Shown here: piece by piece, positions 1,176 through 30,853 of the stretch
How positions within the stretch are numbered: the first letter of the stretch is position 1
How the letters are laid out: every line of letters begins with the position of its first letter
IMG/VR virus record: IMGVR_UViG_3300025867_000005
DNA length: 64,000 nt
Direction: 5' to 3' (one strand)
DNA from: a virus
Lineage: Duplodnaviria; Caudoviricetes
Notes under the pieces: generated by a model
Databases searched by the model: none
What the model was told of the DNA's origin: nothing
The model's input: only the letters and a program-made list of their open reading frames with translations
Made by a program: the position numbers and the translations under genes

Positions 1176-2633
1176 ATGAACATTGAAAGAATGGCGAAAC
1201 AAATTATTTCTTCATTTGCAGAGAAGGAAGCTGAACGCTTTTTCAGATCCTATTTGCCAAAGACCTCTTGGAAGAACCACGTTTTTTCAGTTGGTGGTTA
1301 TGTCAGAGATGAAATTTTGGGTTTGGATGCCAAAGACCTAGACGTTGTGATCGACATTAAAGGCGGGCCAGAAAAGCTTACCAAACAACTTCACGCCCTG
1401 TTTTCAAAGGAAACGACATTCCCAGTGAACATGGGCAATTATCCGATATGGCAAATCACCTTTAAGGAAGACATAATTTGGGAAGGAGAAACTTTCAGGA
1501 CGAAAGGTGCCGTAATTGAATTCGCGGAAACCATGAAGGAAAGTTATCCCGATCCCAACAGCAGACAGAGAAGCACGGAATTCGCGGATTTGGATTCTGA
1601 TGTGAAACGTCGTGATTTTACAACAAACATGATGATGAAGGATTTGAGTAACGGCGAATTTATAGACCTCACTGGCGTCAGCAAATCAGACATTCAAAAA
1701 GGTGTTTTGAGAGGTCATCCTGATGTTGATTTCAACATGATTCTTAACCAAGATCCGTTGCGTATGATGAGACTCGTCAGATTCGCATGTAAATACGGAT
1801 GGACTGTGCCTCTTTCTGTTTTGAAAGCCGTTAAGGCTAATGCCGCAAGGATTCAGACGATTTCTGAAGAACGGATTCGGGATGAACTCATTAAGATAAT
1901 GAAACTCGGCAAGCTTCAAAAAGCGATCAAATTCTTTGATGCCACAGGACTTTTGAAATTTATCTTCCCAGAGATCGAAGCATTGAAGGGAGTGAAACAG
2001 AATGAAATCCATCATTCCGAAGGTGATACTTTTAAGCACACAATGATGGTTTTGCAGAATTCCAAGCCTGGTATTGAAAGCCAATTGTCTGCTTTGCTTC
2101 ATGATGCCGGTAAGGCTTCAACGACGGAATTGATTAACGGTGCTATTCATAGTTACGGTCATGAAAAGGTAAGTGGAGAAATAGCAGAAGCTGTGTGCAG
2201 GCGGCTCAAATTCGATACCGGAGTTATCCACAATGTCAGGAAAATCGTAGAGAACCATATGCGTCCACACGCACTTAAGGATGCCGGGACGGCAGGAATA
2301 CGGAAATTCATACGGGAAGTCGGGGATGAGATTGTAGATGCCGTAATTGATTTAGCAAGAGCCGATGAAATCGGAAAGCTGCCTAAAGGTGACAATATTC
2401 CATCTCTTATGAAAAAGGTGGAAGAAGTGAGGAAAATCAAGCCTGTCAAGAAGAATGATTCCATACTTAACGGTATCGAAATCATGAAGATTCTGAATAT
2501 CAAGCCGAGTGCCAAAATCAAAGAGATTATGTCCTTTCTTGAAGGGAAAGAAGACGAATATCTTGAAAAAGGCAAAGTCCTTGATAAAGAAACGGCTGAA
2601 AAACTTATCCTTGAAAAATTCAAAGGAGTGTAA
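1176..2633 (+). CDS. cca: CCA tRNA nucleotidyltransferase / poly(A) polymerase family with HD domain
   Basis: VGGYVRD..LG...KDLD, RRDFTTN, DPLRMMRLVRF, ERIRDELIK, H-EGD..KHT and LLHDAGK (HD). Start at ATG 1176 (AGAAAGG upstream) preferred over 1149. Confidence 0.92.
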   Translation: MNIERMAKQIISSFAEKEAERFFRSYLPKTSWKNHVFSVGGYVRDEILGLDAKDLDVVIDIKGGPEKLTKQLHALFSKETTFPVNMGNYPIWQITFKEDIIWEGETFRTKGAVIEFAETMKESYPDPNSRQRSTEFADLDSDVKRRDFTTNMMMKDLSNGEFIDLTGVSKSDIQKGVLRGHPDVDFNMILNQDPLRMMRLVRFACKYGWTVPLSVLKAVKANAARIQTISEERIRDELIKIMKLGKLQKAIKFFDATGLLKFIFPEIEALKGVKQNEIHHSEGDTFKHTMMVLQNSKPGIESQLSALLHDAGKASTTELINGAIHSYGHEKVSGEIAEAVCRRLKFDTGVIHNVRKIVENHMRPHALKDAGTAGIRKFIREVGDEIVDAVIDLARADEIGKLPKGDNIPSLMKKVEEVRKIKPVKKNDSILNGIEIMKILNIKPSAKIKEIMSFLEGKEDEYLEKGKVLDKETAEKLILEKFKGV

Positions 2634-2634
2634 A

Positions 2635-2856
2635 ATGGAAGACAACATGGAAGCGGTGGAACGGACAGATGAAAATATTGCAAACCTTTGGGGCATCTTT
2701 TCAGAAATGCTGAAAGACGCTTCTGCTTTCAATGCCGTCAATGTGCCGCAGCAGGCGGCGAAAGACAGAATGATTGAAATCCTTACACAGGCCATGTATC
2801 CTTATCTTGAAGAATATGCACAATGTACGCACGTCTTTGAACAAGGTACGGAATAG
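2635..2856 (+). CDS. Hypothetical protein
   Basis: ATG 2635 after AAGGAG; 73 aa. Confidence 0.6.
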   Translation: MEDNMEAVERTDENIANLWGIFSEMLKDASAFNAVNVPQQAAKDRMIEILTQAMYPYLEEYAQCTHVFEQGTE

Positions 2857-2858
2857 TT

Positions 2859-2865
2859 TTTGATA
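2859..2865 (+). promoter_or_regulatory. Putative phage late-promoter element TTTGATA
   Basis: Same heptamer at eight gene boundaries before virion-module genes. Confidence 0.55.
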
Positions 2866-2904
2866 TTCCTACCTGTTTTATAGGTAAACAGAGAGGAAAT
2901 CAGA

Positions 2905-3288
2905 ATGTCAACTGTAATTAAAACGCATGAAATCAGCCACGGGCAGATGACTAATCCCGGACGTGTGTATTGGGAACCTGGGAAAAGGGATGTGGATTCA
3001 GATCCCAGAGAAGGAATAATGTATCGTGACGTGCATGTCCCTTGTCCGAATCCCGTAGTCGAAACCTTATCAAGAAACGGTTTTGGAAATATCCATACCT
3101 GCATTGATAATGGAACTGGAGTCTTGACGGCACAAAGCATCCCTGAACCTGTTGTTACCAAAACATCTGTAATTACCATCGTCGAAGCTGGCGTGGAAGG
3201 TACTCACGTTTTGAAAGAAACGGAACTAACAAATGTCAATGATATCGCCAAAACAGCAGGTGGATGGGGCTTTGAAGAAGAACCGTAA
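2905..3288 (+). CDS. Hypothetical protein
   Basis: 127 aa; GAGAGG RBS. Confidence 0.75.
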   Translation: MSTVIKTHEISHGQMTNPGRVYWEPGKRDVDSDPREGIMYRDVHVPCPNPVVETLSRNGFGNIHTCIDNGTGVLTAQSIPEPVVTKTSVITIVEAGVEGTHVLKETELTNVNDIAKTAGGWGFEEEP

Positions 3289-5650: not shown

Positions 5651-6463
5651 ATGAGGTGCAATATGGTAGAAAGAAGGTCATCAGTAGACAGATTTCTCAA
5701 AAAGTTTTCAGAAACTTTGGGCTTTGGACTTAACGATTTGGTAAGCTATGCCCCGACAGGACATAAGGTAATCGGGATAGTAGTAGATATCGATCCTAAG
5801 ATTAGGAAGATTTATGTTGATTGGGGTGGCTGTGGCAATATCCATCAACACGATCCGGAAGAATTGCAGATTACCATGCTTCAGGAAAAGGCTGTTAAGA
5901 ATAAGATGGCAAGTGTCAAAATCAAGAAAATCACGGCAGCGATGGTCGGAGACATAAGTACTACGGATTTCATCGATCCTGTTACTTCTGATTTATTGAA
6001 CAAGCAGTTCGCCGCAGAGCTTTCAAATTCAGCTTTTTACCGTTGTTGCGCATCTTGGTTTGGGAATAACGGCTATCCTGGCTTTGAAGCCTATTTCCTG
6101 CGTCAAGGAGACGGTGAAGCAGAACATGCGATGAAAGTCTATACCTTCTTGGCAGAAGCCGGTATACGCGTTGTATTCCCTGTTATCAACGATCAACAGA
6201 TTGCCACGGATTTGAAATCCATCATCAAACAGACATTGGTTAAAGAAACGGAAACCACAAAGAATTGGCAGATCATTTCCAAATCGGCAGAAACAGGAAA
6301 CAATGTTGCGGTAACGGAACTTTGCCAGTGGTTCATGAAGGAACAGATGGAAGAAGAATCAAGCATCACAACCCTTTATCAGAAAGTCATGAATCTTCCT
6401 CTTAGTGGCGGTTTGGAAACAATCGACATGCTTTTGAGAGAAAAAGATCCTATCGTAAAATAA
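5651..6463 (+). CDS. Ferritin-domain protein with an N-terminal SH3/KOW-like extension
   Basis: C-terminal ~165 aa: LNKQ..AEL....Y...ASWF...GF..YF..Q...EAEHAMK...E...WF.KEQ.EEE (FtnA-type ferroxidase ligands). True start may be ATG 5663. Confidence 0.85.
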   Translation: MRCNMVERRSSVDRFLKKFSETLGFGLNDLVSYAPTGHKVIGIVVDIDPKIRKIYVDWGGCGNIHQHDPEELQITMLQEKAVKNKMASVKIKKITAAMVGDISTTDFIDPVTSDLLNKQFAAELSNSAFYRCCASWFGNNGYPGFEAYFLRQGDGEAEHAMKVYTFLAEAGIRVVFPVINDQQIATDLKSIIKQTLVKETETTKNWQIISKSAETGNNVAVTELCQWFMKEQMEEESSITTLYQKVMNLPLSGGLETIDMLLREKDPIVK

Positions 6464-6476: not shown

Positions 6477-6743
6477 ATGGATATCCGCAAAGAACTTCTT
6501 TTTGTCGCCAAACTGATCAAAGCAAAGCCTGAGTACGAATACGCTTGGGACCCTGACCATAAGAATAAACCAAAAGGGGAAGGCTGGGAACAGACAGATG
6601 CCGGTTGGTCTAGGAATACGGGCAAAGAAGAAAAACCAGAAAAGTATTGGGAAGGGAAGAATAAAGAAGGCGAATACTATTACGATACCATTGAATCAGA
6701 AGGGGACGAAGGCGAAAAAGAAGAAGTACAGGATGAAGAATAA
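6477..6743 (+). CDS. Small leader-tagged protein (leader + WDP-H-GW module + acidic tail)
   Basis: MDIRKELLFVAKLIKA then YAWDPDHKNKPKGEGWEQTDAGWS; AGGAG RBS. Confidence 0.75.
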   Translation: MDIRKELLFVAKLIKAKPEYEYAWDPDHKNKPKGEGWEQTDAGWSRNTGKEEKPEKYWEGKNKEGEYYYDTIESEGDEGEKEEVQDEE

Positions 6744-6757
6744 GGAGTAATAAATAC

Positions 6758-8422
6758 ATGAATTTCGAAGCGATGATTTCCAAATTGGCGAATGATATTA
6801 TAACAGCAGAAACTAATTATGTCTGGGACCCGGAGCATAAGAAAAATCCAGGCAGCGGTTATCAGAAAACCGATAAGGGCTGGTCTAAATCAGACGGGAA
6901 AGGGGAAATAACGAAGACGCAACAGAAGAAGGTTCCTTCAGCCCCTGTGAAGCCGACTTCGACTCCTGATGTTTCAGGACATCCTGATATTCTAAAGTCT
7001 AAATCAGGAAAGCAAATCCCGAATAACAAAGACATTCTTGATGTCATTTACAACAACTATAACGATTTCAGCGAAGCAGAAAAAAACAACCTTTTGTCTT
7101 TTTATCGCCAAAAAGCGGATGCCTTGAGTGCTGAAGCGAAGAAACACTACAGTCACCCAGAAGTGTTCAAGAACCTTATCGGTCTAAATAATGAAACTCT
7201 TGATATCATAGAACTCCTGAAGAGCAAAGAAGGATATGATCAAAAGGGGAAAGACATAGAATTAACCAACAGGGTAATAGCCGCTAAAAACTCCAAGGAT
7301 TTCAAGATGGCACTTGGCAAGGTATCTAGCGCCTTCCCTGACTATACGACAGAAGAGGCAACAGTCAATTTCTTGTCGAACCCGAAGATGGCGAAGAATC
7401 TTAAAACTGAAGAACGCAAGGCTCTTCAGGAATACTTTGAAGCAAACAAGTCTGCTTTTGAAAATGAACTAAGTAAGGAACACAAGAATCTTCTAAAAGA
7501 CGGAAAAGGTGATAAGAAAACGATTGGATATCTTTCTGATGGAATCAAGGAATTTGATAAAGTCCTTTCACGGTTGTCTCCACTCTATCCTTCGTATCAA
7601 AAGCTTACGGATATGAAGAAATCAGGGCCGTTTCAGAAAGTCTATCAGTTTGTCAAGAATGTAAAGCCTGGTCCTGTTGCTGAACAAGAATTTATTGATG
7701 TCTTGGGAGAACCGACACATCTTAACACACTGACTTCAGAAGAGAAAAAGGCAATCTCCGATTTCTTCCAAATGAAGAAACAACTTTGGGCAGCCGACGC
7801 GAAGAAAAATCCCGATCTTCAAACTCTTGCAGAAGACGGTATCAAGAAGATGGATCAAATTATTTCCCTTGTCAATCCAAATACAAACAAGAAGGCACCT
7901 GACCCGTCTCAAGTTATGTCTCGTCTTTTCAAAGAACCGGAAATGATAAGTGTCGCTGATAAACCGAAGGTTATCCAGACGTATAAAAATTGGCTTGCAG
8001 CAAATAAGGATAAGAAGGACAAAGATACACAGGCTAAGGTTTCGGACGTAAGGCTTGCTGTCAAGATGTTGGAAGGCCCACGCTTCAAAAAAGTAGACCC
8101 GAAGCTTTCAGGAAACCTTATGTATCTTGTCAAAGACAATGACCTCGGGGATGAATTGCAGGAACTCGCTGGCTTTAAGGAAACCATCAAGAATCATCCT
8201 CAAATGTCTAACAAGGAATACAAGCAGAGGATAGATCAAGGAATGAAGCTTCCTAGAAGTCAGGCACAGCTTAAACAGGCTTTCATCATGAATATGAACC
8301 CGATGAACTACCCGGACATGCAGGCTTTCCAAGCCGCGAAACAAAGGGTTCAGAAAATGGATATCAATGATTTCGGTAAGCTTTTGGCAAGCCTTAACGC
8401 GGATGAAGAAGAAACGATTTAA
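6758..8422 (+). CDS. Large leader-tagged helical protein, putative head-internal/ejected protein
   Basis: ISKLANDIITA|E then YVWDPEHKKNPGSGYQKTDKGWS; 554 aa; AAGGAG RBS. Confidence 0.75.
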   Translation: MNFEAMISKLANDIITAETNYVWDPEHKKNPGSGYQKTDKGWSKSDGKGEITKTQQKKVPSAPVKPTSTPDVSGHPDILKSKSGKQIPNNKDILDVIYNNYNDFSEAEKNNLLSFYRQKADALSAEAKKHYSHPEVFKNLIGLNNETLDIIELLKSKEGYDQKGKDIELTNRVIAAKNSKDFKMALGKVSSAFPDYTTEEATVNFLSNPKMAKNLKTEERKALQEYFEANKSAFENELSKEHKNLLKDGKGDKKTIGYLSDGIKEFDKVLSRLSPLYPSYQKLTDMKKSGPFQKVYQFVKNVKPGPVAEQEFIDVLGEPTHLNTLTSEEKKAISDFFQMKKQLWAADAKKNPDLQTLAEDGIKKMDQIISLVNPNTNKKAPDPSQVMSRLFKEPEMISVADKPKVIQTYKNWLAANKDKKDKDTQAKVSDVRLAVKMLEGPRFKKVDPKLSGNLMYLVKDNDLGDELQELAGFKETIKNHPQMSNKEYKQRIDQGMKLPRSQAQLKQAFIMNMNPMNYPDMQAFQAAKQRVQKMDINDFGKLLASLNADEEETI

Positions 8423-8434
8423 AGGAGTACTGAA

Positions 8435-9292
8435 GTGAACTACAAATCAGAAATTTCAAAAATAGCAAAAATCATTATCGCAGATTCTGATTATGTTTAT
8501 GACCCCGAACATAAGAATAATCCTGGTGGTGGTTATCATCGTACAGAAAAGGGTTGGTCTAAACAAGACTGGAATGGGCAGACAGAAGTTTCTCCTGAAT
8601 CCGGTTCTTCTAAAAAAGAACCATTAAAAATAGACAACTGGGACCCAGCCGTATATGGAGGGTTTTGGGGATCATGGAATTCCACGCCAGCAGCAAGACA
8701 TTTTTTAGAATTCGGTGACGAAAGCGTTGTCAAAGATGAAAAATTCTATGATGAACTTTTTAACGGAAAACTTGGAATTAAAGAACTGCTAAAGAGAGTG
8801 GGAGATAGTTTGCAAGGGAAAGGTGAATATACAGAATTTGGATACACAAAGAAAGACATGATCGACTTGGGACAATTCGCCCTTTATGCTGCAAACAAAG
8901 CCCGCAAAGACGGTATCGACATCGACAAAATCGTATACGGCAAATCGGCCAATCCGGAAAAGAAACCAGAGACTTTTTCGGAAGAAAAGAAAATGAAATT
9001 GGTAAGGGAAATGCCGGGATATTGGTCGGGTTTGAACAAGCTTCAAAGGAACCGTTTAAGTTGGGATGACTTCCATACAAGAGTGATGGATAAATCTATT
9101 GACTTGACTTCAGAGGAAGCACTCTCGATGGCGGCGGTATTGAAGATAAAACAAGATTCTGCATTGAAACTCGCTGAATCTTATAAGAAAAGTGATAGTC
9201 CATTTGCAGGACGGGCAAGGATGATGTCAGAAAGAGAAGCAGAAAAACTTGGCGGGTATGCTGAAGACTTCAACAAGATTGCAAATCAATAA
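8435..9292 (+). CDS. Leader-tagged hypothetical protein
   Basis: EISKIAKIIIA|D then YVYDPEHKNNPGGGYHRTEKGWS; GTG start after AAGGAG. Confidence 0.75.
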   Translation: MNYKSEISKIAKIIIADSDYVYDPEHKNNPGGGYHRTEKGWSKQDWNGQTEVSPESGSSKKEPLKIDNWDPAVYGGFWGSWNSTPAARHFLEFGDESVVKDEKFYDELFNGKLGIKELLKRVGDSLQGKGEYTEFGYTKKDMIDLGQFALYAANKARKDGIDIDKIVYGKSANPEKKPETFSEEKKMKLVREMPGYWSGLNKLQRNRLSWDDFHTRVMDKSIDLTSEEALSMAAVLKIKQDSALKLAESYKKSDSPFAGRARMMSEREAEKLGGYAEDFNKIANQ

Positions 9293-10219: not shown

Positions 10220-11218
10220 ATGAACACGAACAATTTTCCAAGGCATTTATCTGTAAAGAACAGAGAAACACTCCTTCATCCAGGCAGTGGGATTAAAGTT
10301 CAGAATGTCAAAATTCTAACGAATCCACGATATGAATGGGAAAGAATATGCAGGGGACGTACAAGAATCGCCCACAGCATTGATATCGACTGGAAGCGTT
10401 TCAACCTGAATGACTATATCTTCACACATGACTCCATCGTGTCGAGCGTAGAAACAGAAGCCAACGGATATTATATCAAGCCCATCTGTTCGAAGATCGT
10501 CAATTTAAACGGCAACGCGTGGACAAATCCCGTTCTTCTAGCGACATTCCGTACTTTCGTAGGTGGTTATAATTTCGAAGAACATGTTCAAATCCCAAGC
10601 CAAAGCAAAGGAATGATTCTTGATGCCGTTCTTCGTCCTTTTCAATACAGGGATGAAAAAGGCAATATCGCCAATGTCTATATCTGTGACATCCTCGTTG
10701 CCACATGTAAAAGCAATTGGGAACTGGTACAGGAAATACAAACAGGAAAGATGAGAACCTTGTCGATGGGAACCCAGTGCCGTTCCGTCCAATGTAGCCA
10801 TTGCGGTAAGATATTCAGAGATGATGAAGACAGTTGCGATCATATAAAGTACGAACTCGGACAGATGTTTGTCGATGAAAACGGAATCGAACGCATTACT
10901 GCTGAACTCTGCGGTTGCAGCATTTGGGATGCAATAAAGAAAGAATGGATAGGAGATCCGGAATCCAACACCTTTATTGAAGCCAGTTGGGTTAAACATC
11001 CCGCATATGTAGGAGCCGTTGTAAACCATTTCATCAATCCGAAGAATGTAAATCCTTCACTGTTTAAAGAAGCGTCTATCGAAGAATCCATTCAGGGATT
11101 GTTCAATGTCCGGGTTGCTGACAGATATGGGAGGTTGTCTTTGAATCTTCTCAGACAGAAACAGGAGATTGACAAAAGGGAAGGAATGATAAACAGAATC
11201 ATTTCGTCAAAGCATTAG
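10220..11218 (+). CDS. Prohead (capsid maturation) protease with Zn finger
   Basis: NxNGxAW, F.EH....KG.ILDA, I..G....LSMG (catalytic His/Ser pattern), CSHC...CDH; lies upstream of scaffold and capsid. Confidence 0.8.
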   Translation: MNTNNFPRHLSVKNRETLLHPGSGIKVQNVKILTNPRYEWERICRGRTRIAHSIDIDWKRFNLNDYIFTHDSIVSSVETEANGYYIKPICSKIVNLNGNAWTNPVLLATFRTFVGGYNFEEHVQIPSQSKGMILDAVLRPFQYRDEKGNIANVYICDILVATCKSNWELVQEIQTGKMRTLSMGTQCRSVQCSHCGKIFRDDEDSCDHIKYELGQMFVDENGIERITAELCGCSIWDAIKKEWIGDPESNTFIEASWVKHPAYVGAVVNHFINPKNVNPSLFKEASIEESIQGLFNVRVADRYGRLSLNLLRQKQEIDKREGMINRIISSKH

Positions 11219-11227: not shown

Positions 11228-11758
11228 ATGAACAGTAAAGACTTGACAAGGATAGCAAAACTTCTTATCGCGGATTACCGTTATGATCCTCGCCATGAAA
11301 ACAAACCACAGGGTCTAGGCTGGAAACAGACAGAAGGCGGATGGACGAACGTGTTGCACAGGATTAAGAAGACGGAACCGAAGGAAGTTGAACAAGAATC
11401 GGATGTCCCTGAAATAAAGGTCAAGAATTCCCCAGTCCCAGAAGTTTCTGAAAACAAAAAGAGGTTGTCTGTTCTGTTGGGGCAGGCCGGAACAAAAGGA
11501 TTGCTTGACAGAGATACGGAAGGTAAGGCTATAGTAGAACAGAAGGACATCGACAGGATTAATTCAATGCTTTATAAGTCAAGAGGGAATAGAGACAAGG
11601 TAAGAATGTATGTCGAAAATATGTCAAGCGCAATCACTAATCCTAAGAAAGCTGTTCGTAGAGGTCTTGCGGCTTTCCACGGATTGAAAGATGAATTCGG
11701 CAAAGAATTCGCTTGGGAAATGGCTTCAGTTTTCGTCGGCAAAGGATTAAGCCTGTAG
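11228..11758 (+). CDS. Leader-tagged hypothetical protein inside the head operon
   Basis: DLTRIAKLLIA|D then YRYDPRHENKPQGLGWKQTEGGWT. Confidence 0.75.
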   Translation: MNSKDLTRIAKLLIADYRYDPRHENKPQGLGWKQTEGGWTNVLHRIKKTEPKEVEQESDVPEIKVKNSPVPEVSENKKRLSVLLGQAGTKGLLDRDTEGKAIVEQKDIDRINSMLYKSRGNRDKVRMYVENMSSAITNPKKAVRRGLAAFHGLKDEFGKEFAWEMASVFVGKGLSL

Positions 11759-11808
11759 AAATTATCTGCAAAAGATGCCGTTTTTGAAAAACTTACGGTG
11801 ATCTTAAC

Positions 11809-11850
11809 AAGGCGTAATGTGTTTGTAAATCAACATGTTATGCCTTTTTC
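11809..11850 (+). terminator. Probable intrinsic terminator
   Basis: aaggcgtaatgtgtt / aacatgttatgcctt 15-bp stem with G-U pairs, followed by a T-run. Confidence 0.6.
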
Positions 11851-11882
11851 ATTTCTTGTAAGTATGATAAAAATCAACTTTT

Positions 11883-11889
11883 TTTGATA
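11883..11889 (+). promoter_or_regulatory. Putative phage late-promoter element TTTGATA (scaffold/capsid operon)
   Basis: Recurrent motif, ~110 nt upstream of the scaffold ATG. Confidence 0.55.
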
Positions 11890-11999
11890 AATATTCTCTA
11901 GGTTGTAGTGTAATTTGTGTAACAAATTATACCAGCGACAAACCCTGTCGGGGAGTCGCCGACGTAAAGAACGGGCAATCCCCGAAAAGGAGAAAAATA

Positions 12000-13520
12000 A
12001 TGTCACTTAAACGTTTAGCTGAAGCGATGGAAGGAATCGCCGACGAAGCAGAATCAAAGGAACTTGATCAGGTTCTTTCTGACTTCGGTGGTGATGACGG
12101 CGAAGCGGCTCCCGCTGCTGAAGCCGAAGAAACGGAAGAAGATAAAGACGAAGCGATTGTTGCCCGTCTTGCATCTGCTACGGATGATTTTGAAATTTCA
12201 GGAATCAATTCCGGTGATCAGGATGAATTTTCTCAGGTTCAGACTGTCGGACTTGGTAAGGAAGACAAAGCTGATTATGGAACTGTCGCGGAAGCCGCAA
12301 AGAAATATGCTTTCTGCGCACGTAAGCTTGCAAGTCTTGAAGTTGAAGCAAAGAAAGATCCTAATGGCAAGAAATATCTTTCTGCTATCGCATCAATGAC
12401 CCGTATCCTTGAACGTAGGGCCGCTGCACTTAAGGTCGCTGTTGCCGACAAGACTTCGTTTAGCGGAGACCTTGGCCATGACGGAACTCGTGATGAAGCG
12501 GAATACGGTGCCTATGACACCAGCAAACCGGCTATGGACGCTGAAATTCAGAGCACATCGGCTCCTTGGAAAACAGACAAGCATGATGGACTCGGTTTGG
12601 GCATTCCTAAACCAGAAGGCGAAGTAACCCGTGAAGCAAGTTCTAAGATCGCGGCTAACCAGTCAATCCGTTTGGCGGTTTGCTTGCTCGGTTCTAAGGC
12701 TCCTGAAGATATGATTCAGGCACAGGCTGGCGAATTCTTCGCACAGATGAAGCTTGCTAGCATCGAACGCGCTCTTAAACGTATCGCGGAAACCGAAGCT
12801 CTCTATGCGTCTGAAACCACAGCCGTTAATCCAGAAGTCGTTCCTGCTGGTCCTGTCACTACGGTTGAAGAAGCCGCAAAGGAAATCAGCGCATCCGCTG
12901 AAGCTCCCGTTTGTGAAAAGAAAGACGAAGTAAAGGAAGCTGCGGCAGAACTCCCTTCTCCTGAAGAAAAGAAAGAAGATGAGTTTACCGATGATGAAAA
13001 GAAGGAAATTGACGTGATGACCGCTTCAATCGTTGCCCGTCAGGCTAAAATGCGCGAAGCCGCACTTGCCAAAGCGAAGGCATTGATTGCCGCTGAAATT
13101 CCTGTCGTCGAAGAACCTGTCGTCGAAGCTCCTGTTGAAGCCGCACCTGCGGTTGTTACAGAAGAAAAACCGGTAGAAGCCGCTGTTGAAGCAGCTCCGG
13201 TTGTTCAAGACGAGATTGCCGAAGCCGTTGCTCCTGTTGAACCAGAAGTAGCGCCTGCGGAAGAACTTCCTGCTCAGGATGATGAGATTGACTTCTCTAC
13301 TTCTACAAGCGAAGACGCTGAAGGTATCCCGGAATTGGAAGCCTGCATTGATGTCCCGAAACCGGAAGTCAAGCCAGTCGTAGCTTCAAAAACTGCGGAA
13401 GCCAAGCCGAAATTCGCACAGACTCTTGGTGGCACACCTCGCCTTGCTTCAACGAAGAAGGGTGGCGACGTGATTCTCGAAAACCTCTGGGTAAAACCAG
13501 GTGAAGAGTTCTTTGGTTAA
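12000..13520 (+). CDS. Capsid scaffolding / internal core protein
   Basis: 506 aa, A/E/P-rich, lies between protease and capsid genes; many [KR]-x-A-[SA] sites (RLAS, KLAS, REAS, KEAA); strong AAGGAG RBS. Confidence 0.7.
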   Translation: MSLKRLAEAMEGIADEAESKELDQVLSDFGGDDGEAAPAAEAEETEEDKDEAIVARLASATDDFEISGINSGDQDEFSQVQTVGLGKEDKADYGTVAEAAKKYAFCARKLASLEVEAKKDPNGKKYLSAIASMTRILERRAAALKVAVADKTSFSGDLGHDGTRDEAEYGAYDTSKPAMDAEIQSTSAPWKTDKHDGLGLGIPKPEGEVTREASSKIAANQSIRLAVCLLGSKAPEDMIQAQAGEFFAQMKLASIERALKRIAETEALYASETTAVNPEVVPAGPVTTVEEAAKEISASAEAPVCEKKDEVKEAAAELPSPEEKKEDEFTDDEKKEIDVMTASIVARQAKMREAALAKAKALIAAEIPVVEEPVVEAPVEAAPAVVTEEKPVEAAVEAAPVVQDEIAEAVAPVEPEVAPAEELPAQDDEIDFSTSTSEDAEGIPELEACIDVPKPEVKPVVASKTAEAKPKFAQTLGGTPRLASTKKGGDVILENLWVKPGEEFFG

Positions 13521-14186: not shown

Positions 14187-15047
14187 ATGGATATCTCAAC
14201 AGCTTCAAAGTATCAGACCATCGCTAAGTACATCAAGACTGGCGAAGGCCGTTCCCGTATCGCGGCAAGCTTCACGCAGCCCCTGCGTCAGCGTCGTGAC
14301 TATCAGAGCGTCGGTCGTAGAGCCTTCTACGTCGAACAGCTTCTTGACGGTCAGCTCCCGATTTGGGATAAGGATGCCAATGTAACGGCATATGTCATCG
14401 GTGCGGAAGGACAGAACATCCAGTGTGTTCAGAAACCACCGCGTGTTTTCTTCGACTTGTTCGAAATCGCTTCAAATCCTGAAATCTCCATCACAACGAT
14501 CCGTGAAAAGCGCTTCGATGTTTTGGAACGTTCCCTTGACCTCGCCCGTAGCGCGATCATGGCACAGGAAGACCGCTATGTGTTCGCCACAATGGACGCT
14601 TTGGCGGCATCTGCTACCAACCCGAATCCGGTTATCCAGGTCATTGGTAACTTGACTTCTAACGTTTTGATTGACGCGAAAGCGGCTGTCGAACGTAACG
14701 ATATCAGGGTAGCGAATATCTTCATGAACGCAAAGGATTACAACGATCTTTTGAAGTTCGACCGTGACACCCTCAGCCCTGAGTACCAGACTCAGTTGCT
14801 TAAGAACGGCCTCATGGCCAACATCTGGGGAATCAACATCATCGTAAGCCGTATCGTCGCAGAAGGCGATGTCTATGTCTGCGGTGAACCGGAATTCTTC
14901 GGACGTATCCCCGTTCGTCAGGACCTCACCGTCCTTTCAGCGGATGATCCTCGTAACCGCATGGTCGGCTTCTCGGTCTTCGAAATGATCGGTTGCGGCT
15001 TGTGGAATCCGTTGGCAATGAGCAAGATTCAGATTACCCGCGTGTAA
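14187..15047 (+). CDS. Major capsid protein (HK97 fold)
   Basis: PLRQRRDY..VGRR.F.VE.L..G..P.WDKD, FEIASNP, I.AQED, IWG.NI.VS; position after scaffold/decoration; followed by a strong terminator. Confidence 0.85.
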   Translation: MDISTASKYQTIAKYIKTGEGRSRIAASFTQPLRQRRDYQSVGRRAFYVEQLLDGQLPIWDKDANVTAYVIGAEGQNIQCVQKPPRVFFDLFEIASNPEISITTIREKRFDVLERSLDLARSAIMAQEDRYVFATMDALAASATNPNPVIQVIGNLTSNVLIDAKAAVERNDIRVANIFMNAKDYNDLLKFDRDTLSPEYQTQLLKNGLMANIWGINIIVSRIVAEGDVYVCGEPEFFGRIPVRQDLTVLSADDPRNRMVGFSVFEMIGCGLWNPLAMSKIQITRV

Positions 15048-17152: not shown

Positions 17153-17177
17153 CAACTAGAGATGATTGTGCTATATT
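17149..17177 (+). promoter_or_regulatory. Sigma70-type promoter with extended -10
   Basis: TTGACA-17 nt-TATATT with TG at the extended position, upstream of the SprT gene. Confidence 0.75.
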
Positions 17178-17204
17178 GACGGCATCAAAAGAAAGGTTGC
17201 CATC

Positions 17205-17747
17205 ATGCAAGAACTTCAAGACACGATCAACGCTATGGTTTCAGCCACTATCATCAAAGCAAATCAGAAACTCCGGGACATCGGAATTTCCAAACAAATC
17301 CCTATCCAAGTCCCCGTCATTTATTCCAATAGGGAATCCCACACTTTTGCCACTGCCATTCAGGAAGTATCCGGAAAGATGAAAATCAAATTCAATCTTT
17401 GCAATGCGCAGTTGAATCCCCATCTTATTCCGGAAGTCGTCAGCCACGAAGTCAGTCATCTTGCATGTTTCCTCGTCGGACACAAAGGACACGATTATTT
17501 CTGGTCACGTTTTGATCGTAGCATCGGTGGGAAAGGAGAAACCTACATCAAGGGTGTTCGGCATGAGAACTGTTATAAATACAGTTGCGGATGTATGACG
17601 CATGAAATCTCCACCCGTAAGCATAATCTGATTCAGAAGCAGGGTGCCGTTTATCTCTGCAAACGTTGTCGCCGAAAACTCGAATTGGTTATGACTCCGG
17701 AAGAATTCAAGAATTTGAATCAATCAAAGGAAGCCATTCATGCTTAA
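17205..17747 (+). CDS. SprT-like zinc metalloprotease
   Basis: HEVSH...GH...W, then YSCGC...YLCKRC Zn ribbon. Confidence 0.85.
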   Translation: MQELQDTINAMVSATIIKANQKLRDIGISKQIPIQVPVIYSNRESHTFATAIQEVSGKMKIKFNLCNAQLNPHLIPEVVSHEVSHLACFLVGHKGHDYFWSRFDRSIGGKGETYIKGVRHENCYKYSCGCMTHEISTRKHNLIQKQGAVYLCKRCRRKLELVMTPEEFKNLNQSKEAIHA

Positions 17748-18764: not shown

Positions 18765-20495
18765 ATGTCGGAATCCATTTTTTTGAAAATATCTAAAATC
18801 GCCAAATTTCTTTCAGCCGATGGGAAATGGGTAAAGTTTAATTCAAAGTCTCAGAAGCAGGGTTGGAAAAGGAAGAAAGACGGCGGAGGATTTGAATACC
18901 GCTATCAAGACAACGATCCTAACAAAGAAAATAGTTCTGTTGAAAAAAAAGCAATTGAAGACTTAAAGAAAACTAGTGTATTCCGGGATATTGATAATTT
19001 CGGAGAAATTATTGATTCTAAACCAACAGGTAAAAAAGGTATATATCAAGTCACAATAAAACGGGGTTATAAAGAGAAATATGAAGTTGAAACTTCAGAT
19101 TCGGAACTTGGAGTCATGGGGATTAAGAACAAAATACTTGCCAATAGACTGTATAAAACAGCGAACGTTCTTCTCGGACCCGTCTTTCTTTCAGAATTCC
19201 AAGGGAAGCCAGCGATTTTCACAGAGAAGGAGGATACCAGCCTTGACACTCCTGAACTTAAAGAAAATGCTATCGAAACGTCATTCGGTGAAAACTTCCG
19301 TAAAGGATTTATTATTGACGTTTTGCTTGGTAACAATAACGTTCTTGGAAACAATTTCCAAAACGTAGAGATTGTTGGTGGTGTAGTCAGAAGGGATAAC
19401 AAACACACATTGCTATTCAGGGAAGGGGGTATTGACAGTCTTTCAGATCAAGCCGTAGAACTGTATGATTTCAGGGACAAAAACAAATACCCGCAGTTGG
19501 CAAAATTCTATTCAAAGATCAGAGATGATGAAATCATAAAGCAGATTTCAAAAACGGCGATAGCTCTGAATGATGATGTCTTAGCAGACATTGTTACAGA
19601 AATGTTCCCGTCTCCAGAAGAATCAGAGATAGCCAAAAAGTTAATAGATAAGCTAATCAAAAGAAAAAAATATTTGTTGGACTTTGCGAAAGTCAAGGCT
19701 GTTGAGATGATACAGGAAAAGGTTCTTAAGAGAAAGGAGAAATACATTGTCGGACCCGGTATTGTGGAAGAAAAGACGATGACGACAGCAGAAGCAAAGT
19801 CAATCCGCAACTATTCTGATACTGATTATATGCCTATAAACAAATATCTTCGTGGAGAATTAAATCATAATGAGATAAAGGAAACGCCATTTGAAACAGA
19901 AGTCGGAATCAAGGATGCTTGCAAGACGCTAGTTCAGGCTTTGCAGAAACTACCGGCACATGAAGGAATCGTTTATAGAGGTTCTGAAGTAGATGAAGCC
20001 AGCCTCATTTCCATTATGGGGATGAAGCCAGGTGATTCAATCTATATGAAGTCTTTCACCTCAACAAGTAAATCAGAATCTAACGCATTAGAATTCAGTA
20101 CTGATGTTTTGTTTGAAATCGAAAGTCGTACCGGTAGAGACATTTCACATATGAGTGAATATCCTACAGAAGAAGAAGTCATTATGTCACCTGATACTAG
20201 ATATGAAGTGAAGTCAATGGAGTTCGAACAAGAATATATCCGCCTGAAGCTCAAAGAACTTCTCCCAGAAGAAGGTAAAACAAGGTTGTCCGTCAACCTT
20301 AAGAAGAACAAAAAGATGGACCCGAATGAAGTCAGAAAGTTCCTTTTGAAGAATCCGAAGCTTACACGGAAACAACGTGAACGTATTATGCGGCTTAATC
20401 CGGATCAATTGATTAAAATCATTCTGGCAATATTCTCCAAGAAAGGCAACAAGGTAAAAGAAGAATCTAACAAGTTTACAGAAATCTTCATTTAG
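18765..20495 (+). CDS. ADP-ribosyltransferase (VIP2/Alt-like, R-S-E) with a degenerate kinase-like domain; leader-tagged
   Basis: INKYLRG, VYRG, FTSTS, YPTEEEVIM; N-terminal ISKIAKFLSA|D. Confidence 0.85.
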   Translation: MSESIFLKISKIAKFLSADGKWVKFNSKSQKQGWKRKKDGGGFEYRYQDNDPNKENSSVEKKAIEDLKKTSVFRDIDNFGEIIDSKPTGKKGIYQVTIKRGYKEKYEVETSDSELGVMGIKNKILANRLYKTANVLLGPVFLSEFQGKPAIFTEKEDTSLDTPELKENAIETSFGENFRKGFIIDVLLGNNNVLGNNFQNVEIVGGVVRRDNKHTLLFREGGIDSLSDQAVELYDFRDKNKYPQLAKFYSKIRDDEIIKQISKTAIALNDDVLADIVTEMFPSPEESEIAKKLIDKLIKRKKYLLDFAKVKAVEMIQEKVLKRKEKYIVGPGIVEEKTMTTAEAKSIRNYSDTDYMPINKYLRGELNHNEIKETPFETEVGIKDACKTLVQALQKLPAHEGIVYRGSEVDEASLISIMGMKPGDSIYMKSFTSTSKSESNALEFSTDVLFEIESRTGRDISHMSEYPTEEEVIMSPDTRYEVKSMEFEQEYIRLKLKELLPEEGKTRLSVNLKKNKKMDPNEVRKFLLKNPKLTRKQRERIMRLNPDQLIKIILAIFSKKGNKVKEESNKFTEIFI

Positions 20496-21017: not shown

Positions 21018-22766
21018 ATGTTTTTAACACAATGTCTTATCAAAATCGCCAAAATAATCATTTCAGATGAGAAATGGGTCAAGTTTGAATCCGATTCAGA
21101 AAAACAGGGATGGAAGAGAAAAAAACCTGAAGGAGGGTATGAATACCGATATCAAGAGAAAGACCCTAACTTAGAGACGACTAAAGAAAAAACGGAAGGA
21201 CTGCCCAAAGAAATAGCAGAACTTGAATCTTTAAGAGCGATTCCAAAGTATGTCGGGGATGAATGGTTTCACAATATTAAAAGCGTTGATAAATTAGGTG
21301 GCAGCACCGGCGCTGTGAAGGTTGTGACAGAAAATACCTTCGGAACCGTAAATGAAATGGTCGTGAAAACATATGAAAACAATGGCGGCATTAATCAGAT
21401 CAAGAACGAATATCTTGCCAACAGTCTTTATCGTCAGTTAAATGTCAGTGTTCCAGAGACATATGTCGGATATTACAAAGGCAAACCCGCTCTAATCACG
21501 AAGTTTTTGCATGGTAAAGAAGCGCAAATAGAAAACGATAGAGGCATTCTCAAAGGATTCGTTGCTGACGCCTGGCTTGCCAACTGGGATTCTATAGGGC
21601 TGTCTGGAGATAACGTGTTGTATTCCTTCGGCAACACGTATAGAATCGATAATGGCGGTGCGTTGCTGTTTCGGGCACAAGGAGAACCAAAGGGTAACGC
21701 TTTTGGGGATGAAGTAACAGAACTTGATAGCCTTAGAAGTCCTGAAATTAATGTGATGACAGCAAAAGCTTTTGATCAGATAAAAGATTCTGACATCATG
21801 AAACAAGCAATGGAACTTGAAATAAAGATGACAGATGAAAAAATCAGGTCAGTGGTAGAATCTGTCTATAATTCAGATCAAGAAGCGGACTTTGCTAAGA
21901 AACTTTCTGATAGACTGATCAATCGTAAAAAATACATTATTTCTTACGCTAAAAAGTTGGCGATTAAGCGGATTCAAGACAATGTCTTGAAAAGAGAAGC
22001 CCGTTATGTCGTCGGAGAACCGAGTGGAAAAAAGATAACTGTCACTGATAATAAAACAATAAGAGACTATACATCATTAGGTTTCATGGAAATAAACAAG
22101 TATTTGAGAGGAAAAATAGATGATCCTTCAGATGAACCCAAATTTCGTAAAAAAGCCTCTAATCTTGTTACAAGTTTGAAAAAACTACAACCTTATACCG
22201 GTAAGGTTTATCGCGGATCTCACTTGGATGACGCGACAAAACTCGTTATGGCGACAATGAAGCCAGGTGATTTGATTTACATGAAGGCGTTCACTTCTAC
22301 TAGTAAATCAGCATCAAAAGCGGAGCAATTCACTTCAGATGTAAATTTTGAAATCGAAAGTCTAACGGGAAGAGAAGTAGTTGCTTATAGTAAGTATCCT
22401 ACAGAAGAAGAAGTTATTATGTCGCCTGATACCAGATATGAAATCACAGATATTCAAATAACCCCAGATCCGTATTTGGGAAATGCGTTAATCAGAATCA
22501 AGATGAAGGAATTACTTCCTGCACAGAGAGAGACAAAGCTTCCTGTTAACATGAGGAAGAAAGAACCTTCCGCGAATGATTTAAAGGATTTTCTTTTGAA
22601 GAATCCAAAACTTACGCAGAAACAAAGAGAAAGGATTATGCGCCTTCCTCTTGAAGACTTGAAGAAACTTGTTCTTATGATGTTCGCACACGGGAAGAGA
22701 AACCGTGTCGTCAACGATGATGTTACAGAAGAACAAAGCGGAAAGTTCACAGAAGTTTTTATTTAA
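21018..22766 (+). CDS. HipA/PI3K-like kinase + ADP-ribosyltransferase; leader-tagged
   Basis: GGSTGA, VVK, NEYLAN, DAWLANWD, DN, RIDNGG; VYRG, FTSTS, PTEEEV; N-terminal LIKIAKIIIS|D. Confidence 0.85.
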   Translation: MFLTQCLIKIAKIIISDEKWVKFESDSEKQGWKRKKPEGGYEYRYQEKDPNLETTKEKTEGLPKEIAELESLRAIPKYVGDEWFHNIKSVDKLGGSTGAVKVVTENTFGTVNEMVVKTYENNGGINQIKNEYLANSLYRQLNVSVPETYVGYYKGKPALITKFLHGKEAQIENDRGILKGFVADAWLANWDSIGLSGDNVLYSFGNTYRIDNGGALLFRAQGEPKGNAFGDEVTELDSLRSPEINVMTAKAFDQIKDSDIMKQAMELEIKMTDEKIRSVVESVYNSDQEADFAKKLSDRLINRKKYIISYAKKLAIKRIQDNVLKREARYVVGEPSGKKITVTDNKTIRDYTSLGFMEINKYLRGKIDDPSDEPKFRKKASNLVTSLKKLQPYTGKVYRGSHLDDATKLVMATMKPGDLIYMKAFTSTSKSASKAEQFTSDVNFEIESLTGREVVAYSKYPTEEEVIMSPDTRYEITDIQITPDPYLGNALIRIKMKELLPAQRETKLPVNMRKKEPSANDLKDFLLKNPKLTQKQRERIMRLPLEDLKKLVLMMFAHGKRNRVVNDDVTEEQSGKFTEVFI

Positions 22767-26807: not shown

Positions 26808-27164
26808 ATGGACTACAAAACAGAATTGATGAAAATAGCGAAACTGATTAAGGCTGAAGAAACAGGAATTGAATATACCGAGAAGAATAGCAAAGATCAC
26901 AATTTCAAATACAAGGCAGATACGATCAGGGTTTACGACAATCCTAATCAGTTAAAGCGTTTTACCGCCGTTATTACCGGTAGGGAATGGGATGAGCCTG
27001 GAAGTACCGACAAGTCTCTAATTCGGTTTGACATGAATGGTAAGACGGTTTTCGCTACTGGCAAGGAAGATCAGAAGCTTGGTAAACCCGTGGCTTGGAA
27101 AAGCATCCCTGCGGCGGTACAGAAGAAAGTTTTAAATCAGCTATCCGGCAAATGGGAAGAATAA
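26808..27164 (+). CDS. Leader-tagged hypothetical protein
   Basis: MDYKTELMKIAKLIKA|E; AGGAG RBS. Confidence 0.75.
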   Translation: MDYKTELMKIAKLIKAEETGIEYTEKNSKDHNFKYKADTIRVYDNPNQLKRFTAVITGREWDEPGSTDKSLIRFDMNGKTVFATGKEDQKLGKPVAWKSIPAAVQKKVLNQLSGKWEE

Positions 27165-27607: not shown

Positions 27608-27868
27608 ATGGACTACAAAACAGAGCTTAAAAGACTGGCAGTTGAGATTCATGGGAAGAATAGGACTGCCGCAACGACACAAGATGTCGCCTTGGCATTC
27701 ACAAAGTATCTGATAGGCGACAGAGAAGTCGCTATTAGAGATCTTCAGAAACTGAAGACTATTCCAAATCAGGTTTTGGGATTTGAATACCATGAAGACA
27801 ACTATAATCAGATTTTTGACAAGCTTTATGCAAGACTTCTTCAGGCGATTAAGTCTGGATTGTCATAA
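27608..27868 (+). CDS. Leader-tagged small protein
   Basis: MDYKTELKRLAVEIHG; start region identical at DNA level to that of 26808. Confidence 0.7.
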   Translation: MDYKTELKRLAVEIHGKNRTAATTQDVALAFTKYLIGDREVAIRDLQKLKTIPNQVLGFEYHEDNYNQIFDKLYARLLQAIKSGLS

Positions 27869-27870: not shown

Positions 27871-27877
27871 TTTGATA
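27871..27877 (+). promoter_or_regulatory. Putative phage late-promoter element TTTGATA
   Basis: Recurrent intergenic motif. Confidence 0.55.
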
Positions 27878-27991
27878 TTGGTTTCAGATTTAGAGCCTTT
27901 CCACAAGAGGCTGAATCAGAAAGATGGTCTTTCTGATTTGCGGTTTAGGAACTAATGCCGTGAAGTGGGGAAAAAGTTCAAAGGTGAGAAT

Positions 27992-28462: not shown

Positions 28463-28585
28463 AAGGCTGACGGGGGATATCCCCCGTATGAATTTCACCG
28501 CTGAATGGCGGTGATTATTTAGAAACAAACATTGTTTCTGTAAACACACACAACCTGGAAACGGTTGTGAAAAAATGAGGTAAAA

Positions 28586-29200: not shown

Positions 29201-29448
29201 TGTTCTACAGTTATGAGTGTGAAAGTTGTCACAACGTAACGACGATCAACTGCATGATGAAGGACATGAAGAGAAACATCGTCTGTCCTGAATGTGGCGG
29301 AAAGGCCGTTAAATTGATCGAGGCTCCCACTCTTGTCGGGGTATCTTCTTCCAAAGACAGGATAAACAAAGAACAGGTCAGGAAGAACGTAGAAGCAGGA
29401 AAGGTTCAACACGGAAGTCATCTTTCCGCAAGAACGGGGATGAAATAA
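29200..29448 (+). CDS. FmdB-like zinc-ribbon protein
   Basis: YSYECESC...CPECGG....LI. Confidence 0.75.
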   Translation: MFYSYECESCHNVTTINCMMKDMKRNIVCPECGGKAVKLIEAPTLVGVSSSKDRINKEQVRKNVEAGKVQHGSHLSARTGMK

Positions 29449-29451
29449 ACA

Positions 29452-29709
29452 ATGAATACCGAAAGCCACAAAGGAACATCAAAGACATATCGGACCTCTG
29501 ATTTATATCTGAGTGCGTTCCTTTGTGCTTCGGATGTCTTCCTTCAGGGAACTGAAAAGAAACTTGATGGGAAGATCATCTTCTTATTCCTGATTGATGA
29601 AGATAATCTTGAAAGACAGAAGGAGTTGTTCTATAACGGTCGCGGCATGGTTAGTGCCGCCAAGTTCGTAGATTGTATACGAAGGCTGAAAGGTATTTGC
29701 CATAACTGA
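29452..29709 (+). CDS. Small phage protein (DUF5659-like)
   Basis: TSDLYLSAFL...F.F...FYNG...V.A..F...R.LK. Confidence 0.6.
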   Translation: MNTESHKGTSKTYRTSDLYLSAFLCASDVFLQGTEKKLDGKIIFLFLIDEDNLERQKELFYNGRGMVSAAKFVDCIRRLKGICHN

Positions 29710-29714
29710 TAAGT

Positions 29715-29721
29715 TTTGATA
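29715..29721 (+). promoter_or_regulatory. Putative phage late-promoter element TTTGATA (neck/tail operon)
   Basis: Recurrent motif directly before the neck-tail gene block. Confidence 0.55.
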
Positions 29722-29757
29722 ATGAAAACCCTGTATATGGAACAGAGGTTTTAGTCT

Positions 29758-30591
29758 ATGGCAAATTACCCTTCGACATATATCCCGACAGGCACGCTCG
29801 CGTCAGACAGGGCAAACGCGATTATCGATGATTTTCTTACCCCGAAACTTCTTCGTTTCAGGCAGATAGAAGTCAGTGATGAACCTTTACGGCTTGACAG
29901 TGACAGGAAGACGTGGCTTTTAGCTTTCGGAAACATTCTTGAAACCGCACCGATTAAGATCGTCCGTGCCGGTGAAAAGATGATGCCTTCTTCTTTTGAG
30001 CTTGATGCCGAAATGGGAAAGCTTACATTCCTAGATGTCAATACGAGTTTCCAGATAGTTTCAGGGACAGACCTTATCGACACGGTAGATGCGATAGGGA
30101 ATCCGTTAATCGACGTTACGGCAAGTTATAGCTTTGACTATTTCCCTTCGGAAGTGCTTTACGGATTCATCGTGTCTTCAGTCAATGTTATCAATTCCGC
30201 CGGGCAAGACAGTTCTCCTACTTACTACACAGTTGAAAACTGTCCAGATTATTGGGCAGGTGTCATAACTGATTTGGCTTTCGCCCAATGCATGGAACGT
30301 CTGTTATTGGATTACGATTTGTGGAAAGGGAGATTGATTTTCGCGATAGGCGCAGACATGCTTCTTGAAGGACAGGGTGGTGATATCGTATCTCAGCTTA
30401 CGACATTGAAACAGAACGCAGAAGATCGTGCTTACAAGACAATAGACAATCCTGTCTTCAAGGCTGGAGGACGTTTATTGGCTTATCCGACAAACTATTA
30501 TTGGAGAGCGGTTTCTGGTGTCGGGACATCAGGGACAATGAATGTCGGAGGAAGGTTAAGAGGATGGCGGGTCAACAGACTCGGGAGATAA
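29758..30591 (+). CDS. Putative neck / head-tail adaptor protein
   Basis: First gene of the neck-tail block; inserted beta domain and basic C-terminus; call is positional. Confidence 0.5.
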   Translation: MANYPSTYIPTGTLASDRANAIIDDFLTPKLLRFRQIEVSDEPLRLDSDRKTWLLAFGNILETAPIKIVRAGEKMMPSSFELDAEMGKLTFLDVNTSFQIVSGTDLIDTVDAIGNPLIDVTASYSFDYFPSEVLYGFIVSSVNVINSAGQDSSPTYYTVENCPDYWAGVITDLAFAQCMERLLLDYDLWKGRLIFAIGADMLLEGQGGDIVSQLTTLKQNAEDRAYKTIDNPVFKAGGRLLAYPTNYYWRAVSGVGTSGTMNVGGRLRGWRVNRLGR

Positions 30592-30592
30592 A

Positions 30593-30853
30593 ATGAATTT
30601 CAAACAAGAACTTTGCGGAATAGGGAAAATAATCAAAGAAGCAGGTTTCTTTGAAAGGATCAGAGAAGCGGCGATTAGTGTAAGTTCACACGTTACCGTT
30701 TCTAAGAATGATATCTGTAGGGAAAATGTACAGTATATCATCAAATGCGCTGCGGTTTCAGATTGTGAGAACATCAGGAAACGATTATCATCAATAGACG
30801 ACTTCAAGGTTGAAAAGCTTTCACAGGACATTCTTGGAGTCAGCAAAAAATAA
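30593..30853 (+). CDS. Leader-tagged small protein
   Basis: MNFKQELCGIGKIIKEA|G. Confidence 0.65.
   Translation: MNFKQELCGIGKIIKEAGFFERIREAAISVSSHVTVSKNDICRENVQYIIKCAAVSDCENIRKRLSSIDDFKVEKLSQDILGVSKK

Follow-up and report, generated by a model that had tools for sequence, protein, structure and literature searches.

The element described here is an N-terminal module that recurs on seven proteins encoded in the window, by which we mean the whole 64,000-nucleotide stretch analysed from the IMG/VR virus record IMGVR_UViG_3300025867_000005, corresponding to bases 52,571-116,570 of one phage contig of 304,025 bp and 41% GC. It is a genuine, modular N-terminal element, conserved at the protein level and carried by diverse enzymes; it is widely distributed, and several of its carriers are encoded beside a prohead protease of the T4 gp21 fold. 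The explanation we favour, to which we assign a probability of about one half, is that the module would be a lineage-specific, two-part counterpart of the capsid-targeting sequence (CTS) of bacteriophage T4, that is, an address tag into the prohead core of uncultured, phage-G/T4-like jumbo phages.

Architecture and significance of the N-terminal module

The module begins with an amphipathic helix of about 17 residues, which is followed by a 25-residue mini-domain rich in Tyr, Trp and Gly (hereafter the second element) and then by a disordered linker. A first-pass annotation of this DNA had noticed a common leader of about 12 residues; the shared part extends in fact over about 45-50 residues and is made of two parts. 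The consensus of the second element is roughly Y-x-Y-D-P-x-H-K-x-x-P-x-G-x-G-W-x-x-T-x-K-G-W, with 11 columns conserved at 95% or more in the column statistics of the external family, and the helix ends with [LIV]-[AS]-[DE] in most of the members that possess both parts, the acidic residue being mostly Asp. In the two ADP-ribosyltransferase (ART) proteins 18765 and 21018 (proteins are designated by the first base of their gene in the window) the second element is a variant, and in 26808 it is degenerate. The AlphaFold2 model of protein 8435, computed with a 150-sequence alignment, predicts a helix at residues 3-16 (predicted local distance difference test, pLDDT, of about 80), a β mini-domain at residues 20-42 (pLDDT of about 95), a disordered segment at residues 49-76 and then a helical body; Foldseek returned no match for this model and the ESM Atlas no usable hit. 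The helix consensus bears a Lys, an Arg or a Glu every 3-4 residues and contains no Sec- or Tat-type hydrophobic core (at least 10 uncharged residues close to the N-terminus), in agreement with the earlier view that it is not a Sec signal.

The significance of the module was assessed with hidden Markov models (HMMs) of the helix alone and of the second element alone, both trained on 124 external relatives and hence non-circular, by scanning the 5,383 six-frame open reading frames (ORFs) of the 304-kb genome. The comparison of the full genome with shuffled sequences, which the first-pass annotation had proposed as a check, speaks for the tag: five real matches of the helix model reach 11 bits or more (8435 with 13.1 bits, 6477 with 12.0, 26808 with 11.8, a protein at genome position 213975 with 11.2 and 11228 with 11.1; 21018 follows with 8.6), and five whole-proteome shuffles gave maxima of 5.0-9.8 bits, none of them reaching 10. 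Each of these top matches, that of 21018 included, lies immediately behind a start codon preceded by a Shine-Dalgarno-like site. The model of the second element yielded seven matches of 42-55 bits, namely 8435, 11228, 6477, 6758 and the proteins at genome positions 178091, 152735 and 209387. The helices of 6758 and 18765 are diverged, and the membership of these two proteins is established through the second element or its ART-type variant and through paralogy. A strict regular expression for the helix matched unrelated ORFs only, because the helices of the window are shorter than the family consensus.

The eleven peptides of the first-pass annotation are all encoded where it placed them, and its claim of a leader shared by about ten proteins holds for seven of the eleven (6477, 6758, 8435, 11228, 18765, 21018 and 26808), which are significant, whereas those of the CCA-adding enzyme, 27608 and 30593 are plausible only; the internal site at 9521, which had been counted as a further copy, scores 6.1 bits with the helix model, a noise-level value, and is not supported. 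Across pairs of tags, third codon positions differ in 69% of the cases and second positions in 40%, and selection on the tag peptide therefore acts at the protein level. An RNA or DNA element was considered as an explanation and rejected, since third codon positions are nearly saturated.

Distribution of the module and separability of its parts

A profile of the seven N-termini of the window, searched against 1.84 billion representative proteins, retrieved 243 protein clusters at E ≤1e-3, 37 of them at E ≤1e-10. Among the best 150 of the 243 clusters the module begins within residues 1-15 in 132, and Pfam detects in these 150 relatives LRV/HEAT repeats (45), ART-PolyVal (3), ART (2) and S-adenosylmethionine (SAM) lyase (2), together with single cases of phage lysozyme, RelA_SpoT and PI3/PI4-kinase. 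Family members occur on contigs of up to 296 kb, and the relatives originate from anaerobic digesters or rumen. The module corresponds to no family in Pfam or PHROG, no description of the motif was found in the literature, and sequence searches of the PDB with the module profile, as with the protease discussed below, gave nothing meaningful. A search of IMG/VR for relatives returned near-identical fragments only, and the comparisons below were made with 19 metagenome loci, whose labels begin with L.

When 172,000 six-frame residues from related metagenome loci were scanned with the helix model, each of the 20 best hits (at least 13.7 bits) was preceded by an ATG on the gene strand; nine are made of the helix only and eleven of the helix and the second element. 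Conversely, some proteins start directly with the second element and have no helix. The helix and the second element thus occur separately, i.e. they are separable parts. Tandem arrays of carriers with differing bodies are present in L009, L013 and L015. In an 80%-identical relative (L021/L005 9836-11032, compared with window 6477-9292), a single gene encodes a 386-residue fusion of 6477 and 6758 (P0002), which consists of the helix, the second element, another second element and the C-terminal half of 6758, and no homologue of 8435 is present in this relative (L021); the set of carriers therefore turns over quickly.

The bodies of the carriers had been described as mostly unrelated. BLAST confirms this, with the two ART paralogues as the exception, but 6758, 18765 and 21018 have in common a C-terminal module, helical and often ending in an acidic tail, which was recognised in 51 sequences (48 relatives of at least 200 residues, 6758 and both ARTs) and is present in about half of the longer module-bearing relatives. 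Its sites in the window are 8255-8422, 20330-20495 and 22600-22766, so that these carriers show conserved ends and variable middles.

As a side observation, the distant relative L008 has an ADP-ribosylglycohydrolase-like ORF between two carriers and an RtcB-like ligase nearby (7571-8362 and 11726-12898), both calls being made by eye from N-terminal motifs only.

Carriers in the head gene block and elsewhere in the genome

The called genes of the window lie without exception on the + strand, and the genes of the large terminase and the portal are directly upstream of it. The window then continues with a 245-residue ORF, the CCA-adding enzyme, small ORFs, a ferritin-domain protein (5651), the carriers 6477, 6758 and 8435, an ORF at 9305, the prohead protease (10220), the carrier 11228, a putative scaffold (12000), a 162-residue protein and an HK97-type capsid protein (14187). 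Genes 6477, 6758, 8435 and 11228 each begin 9-14 nt past the preceding gene and form a single block with those of the ferritin-domain protein, the protease and the scaffold, and the order of this head block is retained in the relative L023 at 40-60% identity. The packing of these four carriers in one operon with a gp21-fold protease and a putative scaffold supports the head-loading reading indirectly.

The first carrier of the block (6477..6743, 88 residues), whose gene starts 13 nt past that of the ferritin-domain protein, is composed of the helix (12.0 bits with the external HMM), the second element (45 bits) and an acidic tail and, judged by its place, is a positional analogue of the small prohead-core proteins of T4. 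It is followed by a 554-residue carrier (6758..8422), in which a diverged helix and a second element of 42 bits precede a body of unknown type, without match in Pfam and PHROG, and the C-terminal module, and by a 285-residue carrier (8435..9292) with the helix (13.1 bits), the second element (55 bits), a disordered linker and a helical body. The fourth (11228..11758, 176 residues; helix 11.1, second element 48 bits) is located between the protease, 9 nt past its stop codon, and the scaffold; its body is conserved, with homologues at the same slot in L021 and L023.

Beyond the capsid gene, two carriers are ART proteins of similar build (helix, variant second element, ART domain and C-terminal module) that are 42% identical to each other and are thus paralogues. 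The one encoded at 18765..20495 (576 residues) is recognised by the Pfam families ART and ADPrib_exo_Tox with E of about 1e-16, and in PHROG it matches MuF-type head proteins over their ART part; the other (21018..22766, 582 residues; helix 8.6 bits) matches Pfam ART with E 2e-13 and the Alt-like phrog_802. The matches of the ART carriers to phrog_595 and phrog_21789 are confined to residues ~307-500, which is the ART part, and in their N-terminal 300 residues no Pfam hit, and neither a MuF nor a portal domain, was found. When an ART gene lies next to head genes, its product is generally taken to be packaged (PMC9503650). The last significant carrier of the window (26808..27164, 118 residues) has the helix (11.8 bits, external HMM) and a degenerate second element (55 bits for the module with an HMM derived from the window).

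The genome contains at least twelve carriers, seven in the window and five outside. The first-pass annotation had placed the carriers around the head genes, which is correct for the four packed with the protease and the scaffold but does not hold for the five others, found at genome 148, 153, 178, 209 and 214 kb; its statement that replication and tail genes lack them is borne out, as none was found in the window between 32 and 64 kb. Outside the window, the protein at genome 148108 is a further carrier of the ART-type variant, that at 213975 has the helix only, with a DUF5661 domain, and the gene at 209387-210247 (L029:5387-6247) encodes a SAM lyase (PF23780) with the second element and no helix. 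In this SAM lyase, an N-terminal extension of about 80 residues holds the second element behind a different leader, an arrangement also seen in its homologues P0126 and P0134.

Prohead protease, putative scaffold and a candidate cleavage motif

The protein encoded at 10220..11218 (phrog_18299) is a prohead protease with the fold of T4 gp21 and the herpesvirus assemblins. Its AlphaFold2 model (mean pLDDT 81), compared with the PDB by VIA-align, matches best T4 gp21 (5jbl_A, Z 9.4, root-mean-square deviation 2.6 over 133 residues) and next the herpesvirus proteases (varicella-zoster virus protease, Z 8.8); Foldseek gives weak matches, with herpesvirus proteases on top at E 0.07. In the model the catalytic core is followed by a disordered tail containing Arg-Val-Ala-Asp and by a long C-terminal helix, and this tetrapeptide is near-invariant in 42 homologues. 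Some homologues of the protease are split or lengthened by intein/Hint domains (PF14890, PF05203, PF07591), as observed in L023 (3292-5469) and in P0235, P0257, P0262, P0266 and P0269.

The 506-residue protein encoded between the protease and capsid genes (12000..13520), with a net charge of -51 and no family hit, is the putative scaffold. An alignment of six homologues contains one invariant Val/Leu-Ala/Ser-Asp-Lys-Thr site and three conserved hydrophobic-Ala-Asp/Glu sites, i.e. four conserved sites of the candidate type against 0-2 for control motifs. The same kind of hydrophobic-Ala-Asp motif is found in three places: at the helix end of the members with helix and second element, in the tail of the protease and in the scaffold.

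Neighbouring genes and marginal candidates

The major capsid protein (14187..15047; phrog_2522, E 5e-49) has the HK97 fold and is of the phage G type; its sequence identity is 36% with gp27 of Bacillus phage G, 43% with its counterpart in Tunturiibacter phage Tunturi_5 and 56% with that of an uncultured 485-kb phage. The 162-residue protein encoded between the putative scaffold and the capsid protein occupies the position of the phage G decoration protein. In phage G itself (NC_023719 3298-44131), gp5, gp9, gp10, gp17, gp20 and gp38, encoded around the portal and capsid genes, carry [STK]-R-[LI]-[KI]-K within their first ~10 residues; the motif occurs 7 times in 33,317 six-frame residues, 7/7 on the gene strand and 6/7 at gene starts, and it may be an N-terminal tag of phage G's own.

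The ferritin-domain protein whose gene immediately precedes the carriers in the head operon (5651-6463; Pfam Ferritin, E 6e-20) is kept in L021 (93%) and L023 (69%) and does not bear the tag. A protein with a SprT-like metalloprotease domain (17166-17747; Pfam SprT-like, E 3e-5, just below the curated cut-off) is encoded between the region of the capsid gene and the two ART genes.

Three further N-termini resemble the helix. The CCA-adding enzyme (1176..2633), in which Pfam PolyA_pol begins at residue 46, has a helix-like N-terminal extension of about 30 residues that makes it a candidate only: the helix HMM gave no match to it in the genome scan, and the relative L021 keeps a similar N-terminus which is a closer match to the helix. 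The suggestion that this enzyme is packaged for tRNA repair thus depended on a leader that is not significant, and is not supported. In L021/L007 (2167-6017, compared with window 1149-2633) the gene of this enzyme matches in three separated pieces, and two insertions that the window lacks seem to interrupt it in this 80%-identical relative. The 86-residue ORF at 27608..27868 has the first half of the helix only (helix HMM E of at least 3), and the first 20 nt of its start are identical to those of 26808, which makes it a candidate for a recent copy of a start cassette. Another 86-residue ORF (30593..30853), with a degenerate helix, is marginal (E 0.06 with a circular model, no match with the external model); its slot is occupied by a canonical helix-only carrier in L022 and not in L011, and its body has no similarity to that of the L022 carrier.

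A proposed model for the loading of carriers into the head

In the model we propose, the carriers would be docked, cleaved, packaged and injected in the following way. The amphipathic helix, which is mildly basic, would dock on a component of the prohead core either by itself or with the help of the second element, the very acidic scaffold being the most likely partner, and the cargo would be held by the flexible linker rich in Lys and Glu. The gp21-type prohead protease would probably trim the tag where the helix ends in hydrophobic-Ala-(Asp/Glu), thereby releasing the cargo inside the capsid, and it would perhaps trim the shared C-terminal module as well. The cargo, which includes the ADP-ribosyltransferases, the SAM lyase and others, would then go into the host with the DNA. 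Indirect support comes from the classes of cargo (MuF-fused or Alt-type ART, SAM lyase), which by analogy would be those expected of injected early effectors. The cleavage step takes its precedent from T4, in which gp21 cuts off the 10-19-residue CTS at L/I-X-E, in which this sequence docks the internal proteins on the scaffold core, and in which Alt is processed at both ends (PMC9026906).

Several observations weigh against this model. The five carriers outside the window lie among genes that do not look structural, although the ip and alt genes of T4 are likewise dispersed. The module is missing from phage G, Tunturi_5 and the 485-kb phage (LR745208) despite the common capsid type, DNA and protein searches with the carriers found no match to it in 50,697 GenBank phage records, and about 12% of the family members (best 150 of the 243 clusters) hold it internally. 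The scaffold N-termini score ~0 bits on the helix model, even though three of six align with it in register. As for the cleavage, the candidate tripeptide is a common one and its enrichment in the single scaffold sequence is non-significant (7 observed, 4.7 expected, p 0.2), and no site matching the motif is present in the capsid protein. The helix-only relatives keep a hydrophobic-x-Ala/Ser end, often without the acidic residue, and the clipping site first suggested, after the final Ala/Ser, is a candidate only. Moreover, gp21-type cleavage occurs after Glu, and an Asp blocks the processing of the T4 CTS (PMC9026906).

We also put forward a broader proposal, with somewhat less than even confidence: the transferable two-part tag (basic amphipathic helix and Trp/Tyr mini-domain, often with the C-terminal module) would mark the whole repertoire of injected effectors in a widespread clade of jumbo phages, whose gp21-type protease would have shifted to cutting after Asp. 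The packaged counter-defence enzymes of this clade (ART, SAM lyase, RelA/SpoT-like and HEAT-repeat proteins) would then be readable from sequence, and the tag would be a new packaging handle. If the tag does load the head, it provides a list, obtained from sequence alone, of the pre-made proteins injected by these uncultured jumbo phages, here including two ADP-ribosyltransferases and a SAM lyase; to our knowledge, no SAM lyase is on record among the cargo of virions. The tag would in that case be a second packaging handle, structurally different from the first. Whatever its function, a conserved module that is found in 243 clusters and lies outside Pfam and PHROGs merits the definition of a family.

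Alternative explanations

The main rival, which we hold to be unlikely, assigns the module a structural role: it would be no removable tag and would itself do the work in a diversified family of proteins of the prohead core or the head interior, as a unit that self-assembles or contacts DNA and is comparable to T4 gp67/gp68 or to the inner-body paralogues of phiKZ, the variable bodies being additions. The conservation of the second element (11 columns at 95% or more) is far above the need of a simple signal, and this element is predicted to be a folded mini-domain (pLDDT of about 95) and is duplicated in a relative; 6477 contains little beyond the module and an acidic tail, about half of the longer members have the C-terminal module in common, and the bodies of 45 of the 150 relatives are LRV/HEAT solenoids and not enzymes. 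Such a structural unit is less easily reconciled with the presence of the helix alone on many unrelated small proteins, and with enzymes that have their own folds (ART, SAM lyase, lysozyme, RelA/SpoT) and carry the module as an extension through a disordered linker. We find it more doubtful still that the tag is a docking plug for the portal, the neck or the tail, its proteins being attached to the virion and not internal to the capsid: carriers of L011 and L022 do lie amid homologues of neck and tail-tube genes, and the family includes a lysozyme, a typical tail-associated activity, but the tightest linkage is to the protease and the scaffold and not to tail genes, none of the carriers detected lies in the window's tail region, and ART and SAM lyase act on cytoplasmic targets.

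It is rather improbable that the tag has no relation to the virion and is a recognition sequence for a modifying enzyme, a chaperone or an export route, for instance a leader like those of ribosomally synthesised and post-translationally modified peptides or a membrane-binding helix. The invariant Tyr, Asp, Pro, His and Trp of the second element could make a modification site, and glycosyltransferase-like ORFs are present at 24.7-26.2 kb; yet no enzyme recurs next to the carriers in the related loci, the helix is charged and has no Sec- or Tat-type hydrophobic core, and the genome has a single radical-SAM gene, located at 10.7 kb on the opposite strand and far from all carriers. A radical-SAM maturase acting on the tag was rejected for this lack of linkage. 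Finally, a chance resemblance of ordinary amphipathic N-terminal helices, of which four of the eleven listed peptides, at or below noise, might be taken as a sign, has a negligible probability: the shuffled controls never reach 10 bits, 243 clusters at E ≤1e-3 are found among the 1.84 billion proteins, and the top helix hits in related loci all lie at gene starts (20/20). For the seven core carriers chance is refuted.

Comparison with known systems

The closest parallel to the address tag we favour is the T4 CTS of IPI-III and Alt, which is removed by gp21 (PMC9026906). In both cases a short N-terminal element is found on otherwise unrelated proteins, an ADP-ribosyltransferase is among the cargo, the genes lie beside or near those of a gp21-fold prohead protease and a scaffold, the element ends with hydrophobic-x-acidic, and the set of cargo changes fast between relatives; a special C-terminus is moreover found in T4 Alt as in many carriers here. 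In contrast, there is no sequence similarity and no PHROG or Pfam link between the two, their common consensus being limited to the terminal hydrophobic-Ala-acidic; the tag here has ~45-50 residues in two separable parts with a linker, against 10-19 in T4; its acidic residue is mostly Asp, which blocks T4 processing; and it is found on at least 12 carriers per genome and in 243 clusters of the wider family.

The propeptides of phiKZ, 201phi2-1 and SPN3US (PMC10052503, PMC7411985) offer a second parallel, as these are jumbo phages with a diverged gp21-like protease in which the N-terminal regions of many head proteins are removed at a short motif. Unlike the module, however, they do not constitute one shared transferable unit, their motif is S/A-X-E, and the phages belong to another lineage with other capsid proteins. 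In the MuF-fused and polyvalent effectors (Iyer et al.; PMC9503650), ART-PolyVal and Alt/VIP2-type ARTs are joined to an N-terminal part that directs them to the head, whereas the carriers have no MuF or portal domain and their N-terminal part is a small tag and not a structural head protein. The encapsulation peptides of microcompartments and the cargo-loading peptides of encapsulins likewise use a short amphipathic helix and a flexible linker to send enzymes into a protein shell, which in encapsulins has the HK97 fold, and a ferritin gene adjoins the carriers here; the resemblance is an analogy only and not a homology, as the peptides of encapsulins are C-terminal and the ferritin of the window is without the tag.

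In conclusion, the two-part module, its size and its list of cargo are new, and the general principle, known from T4, appears to recur. If the module does load proteins into the head, the targeting principle of T4 would be widespread in lineage-specific forms.

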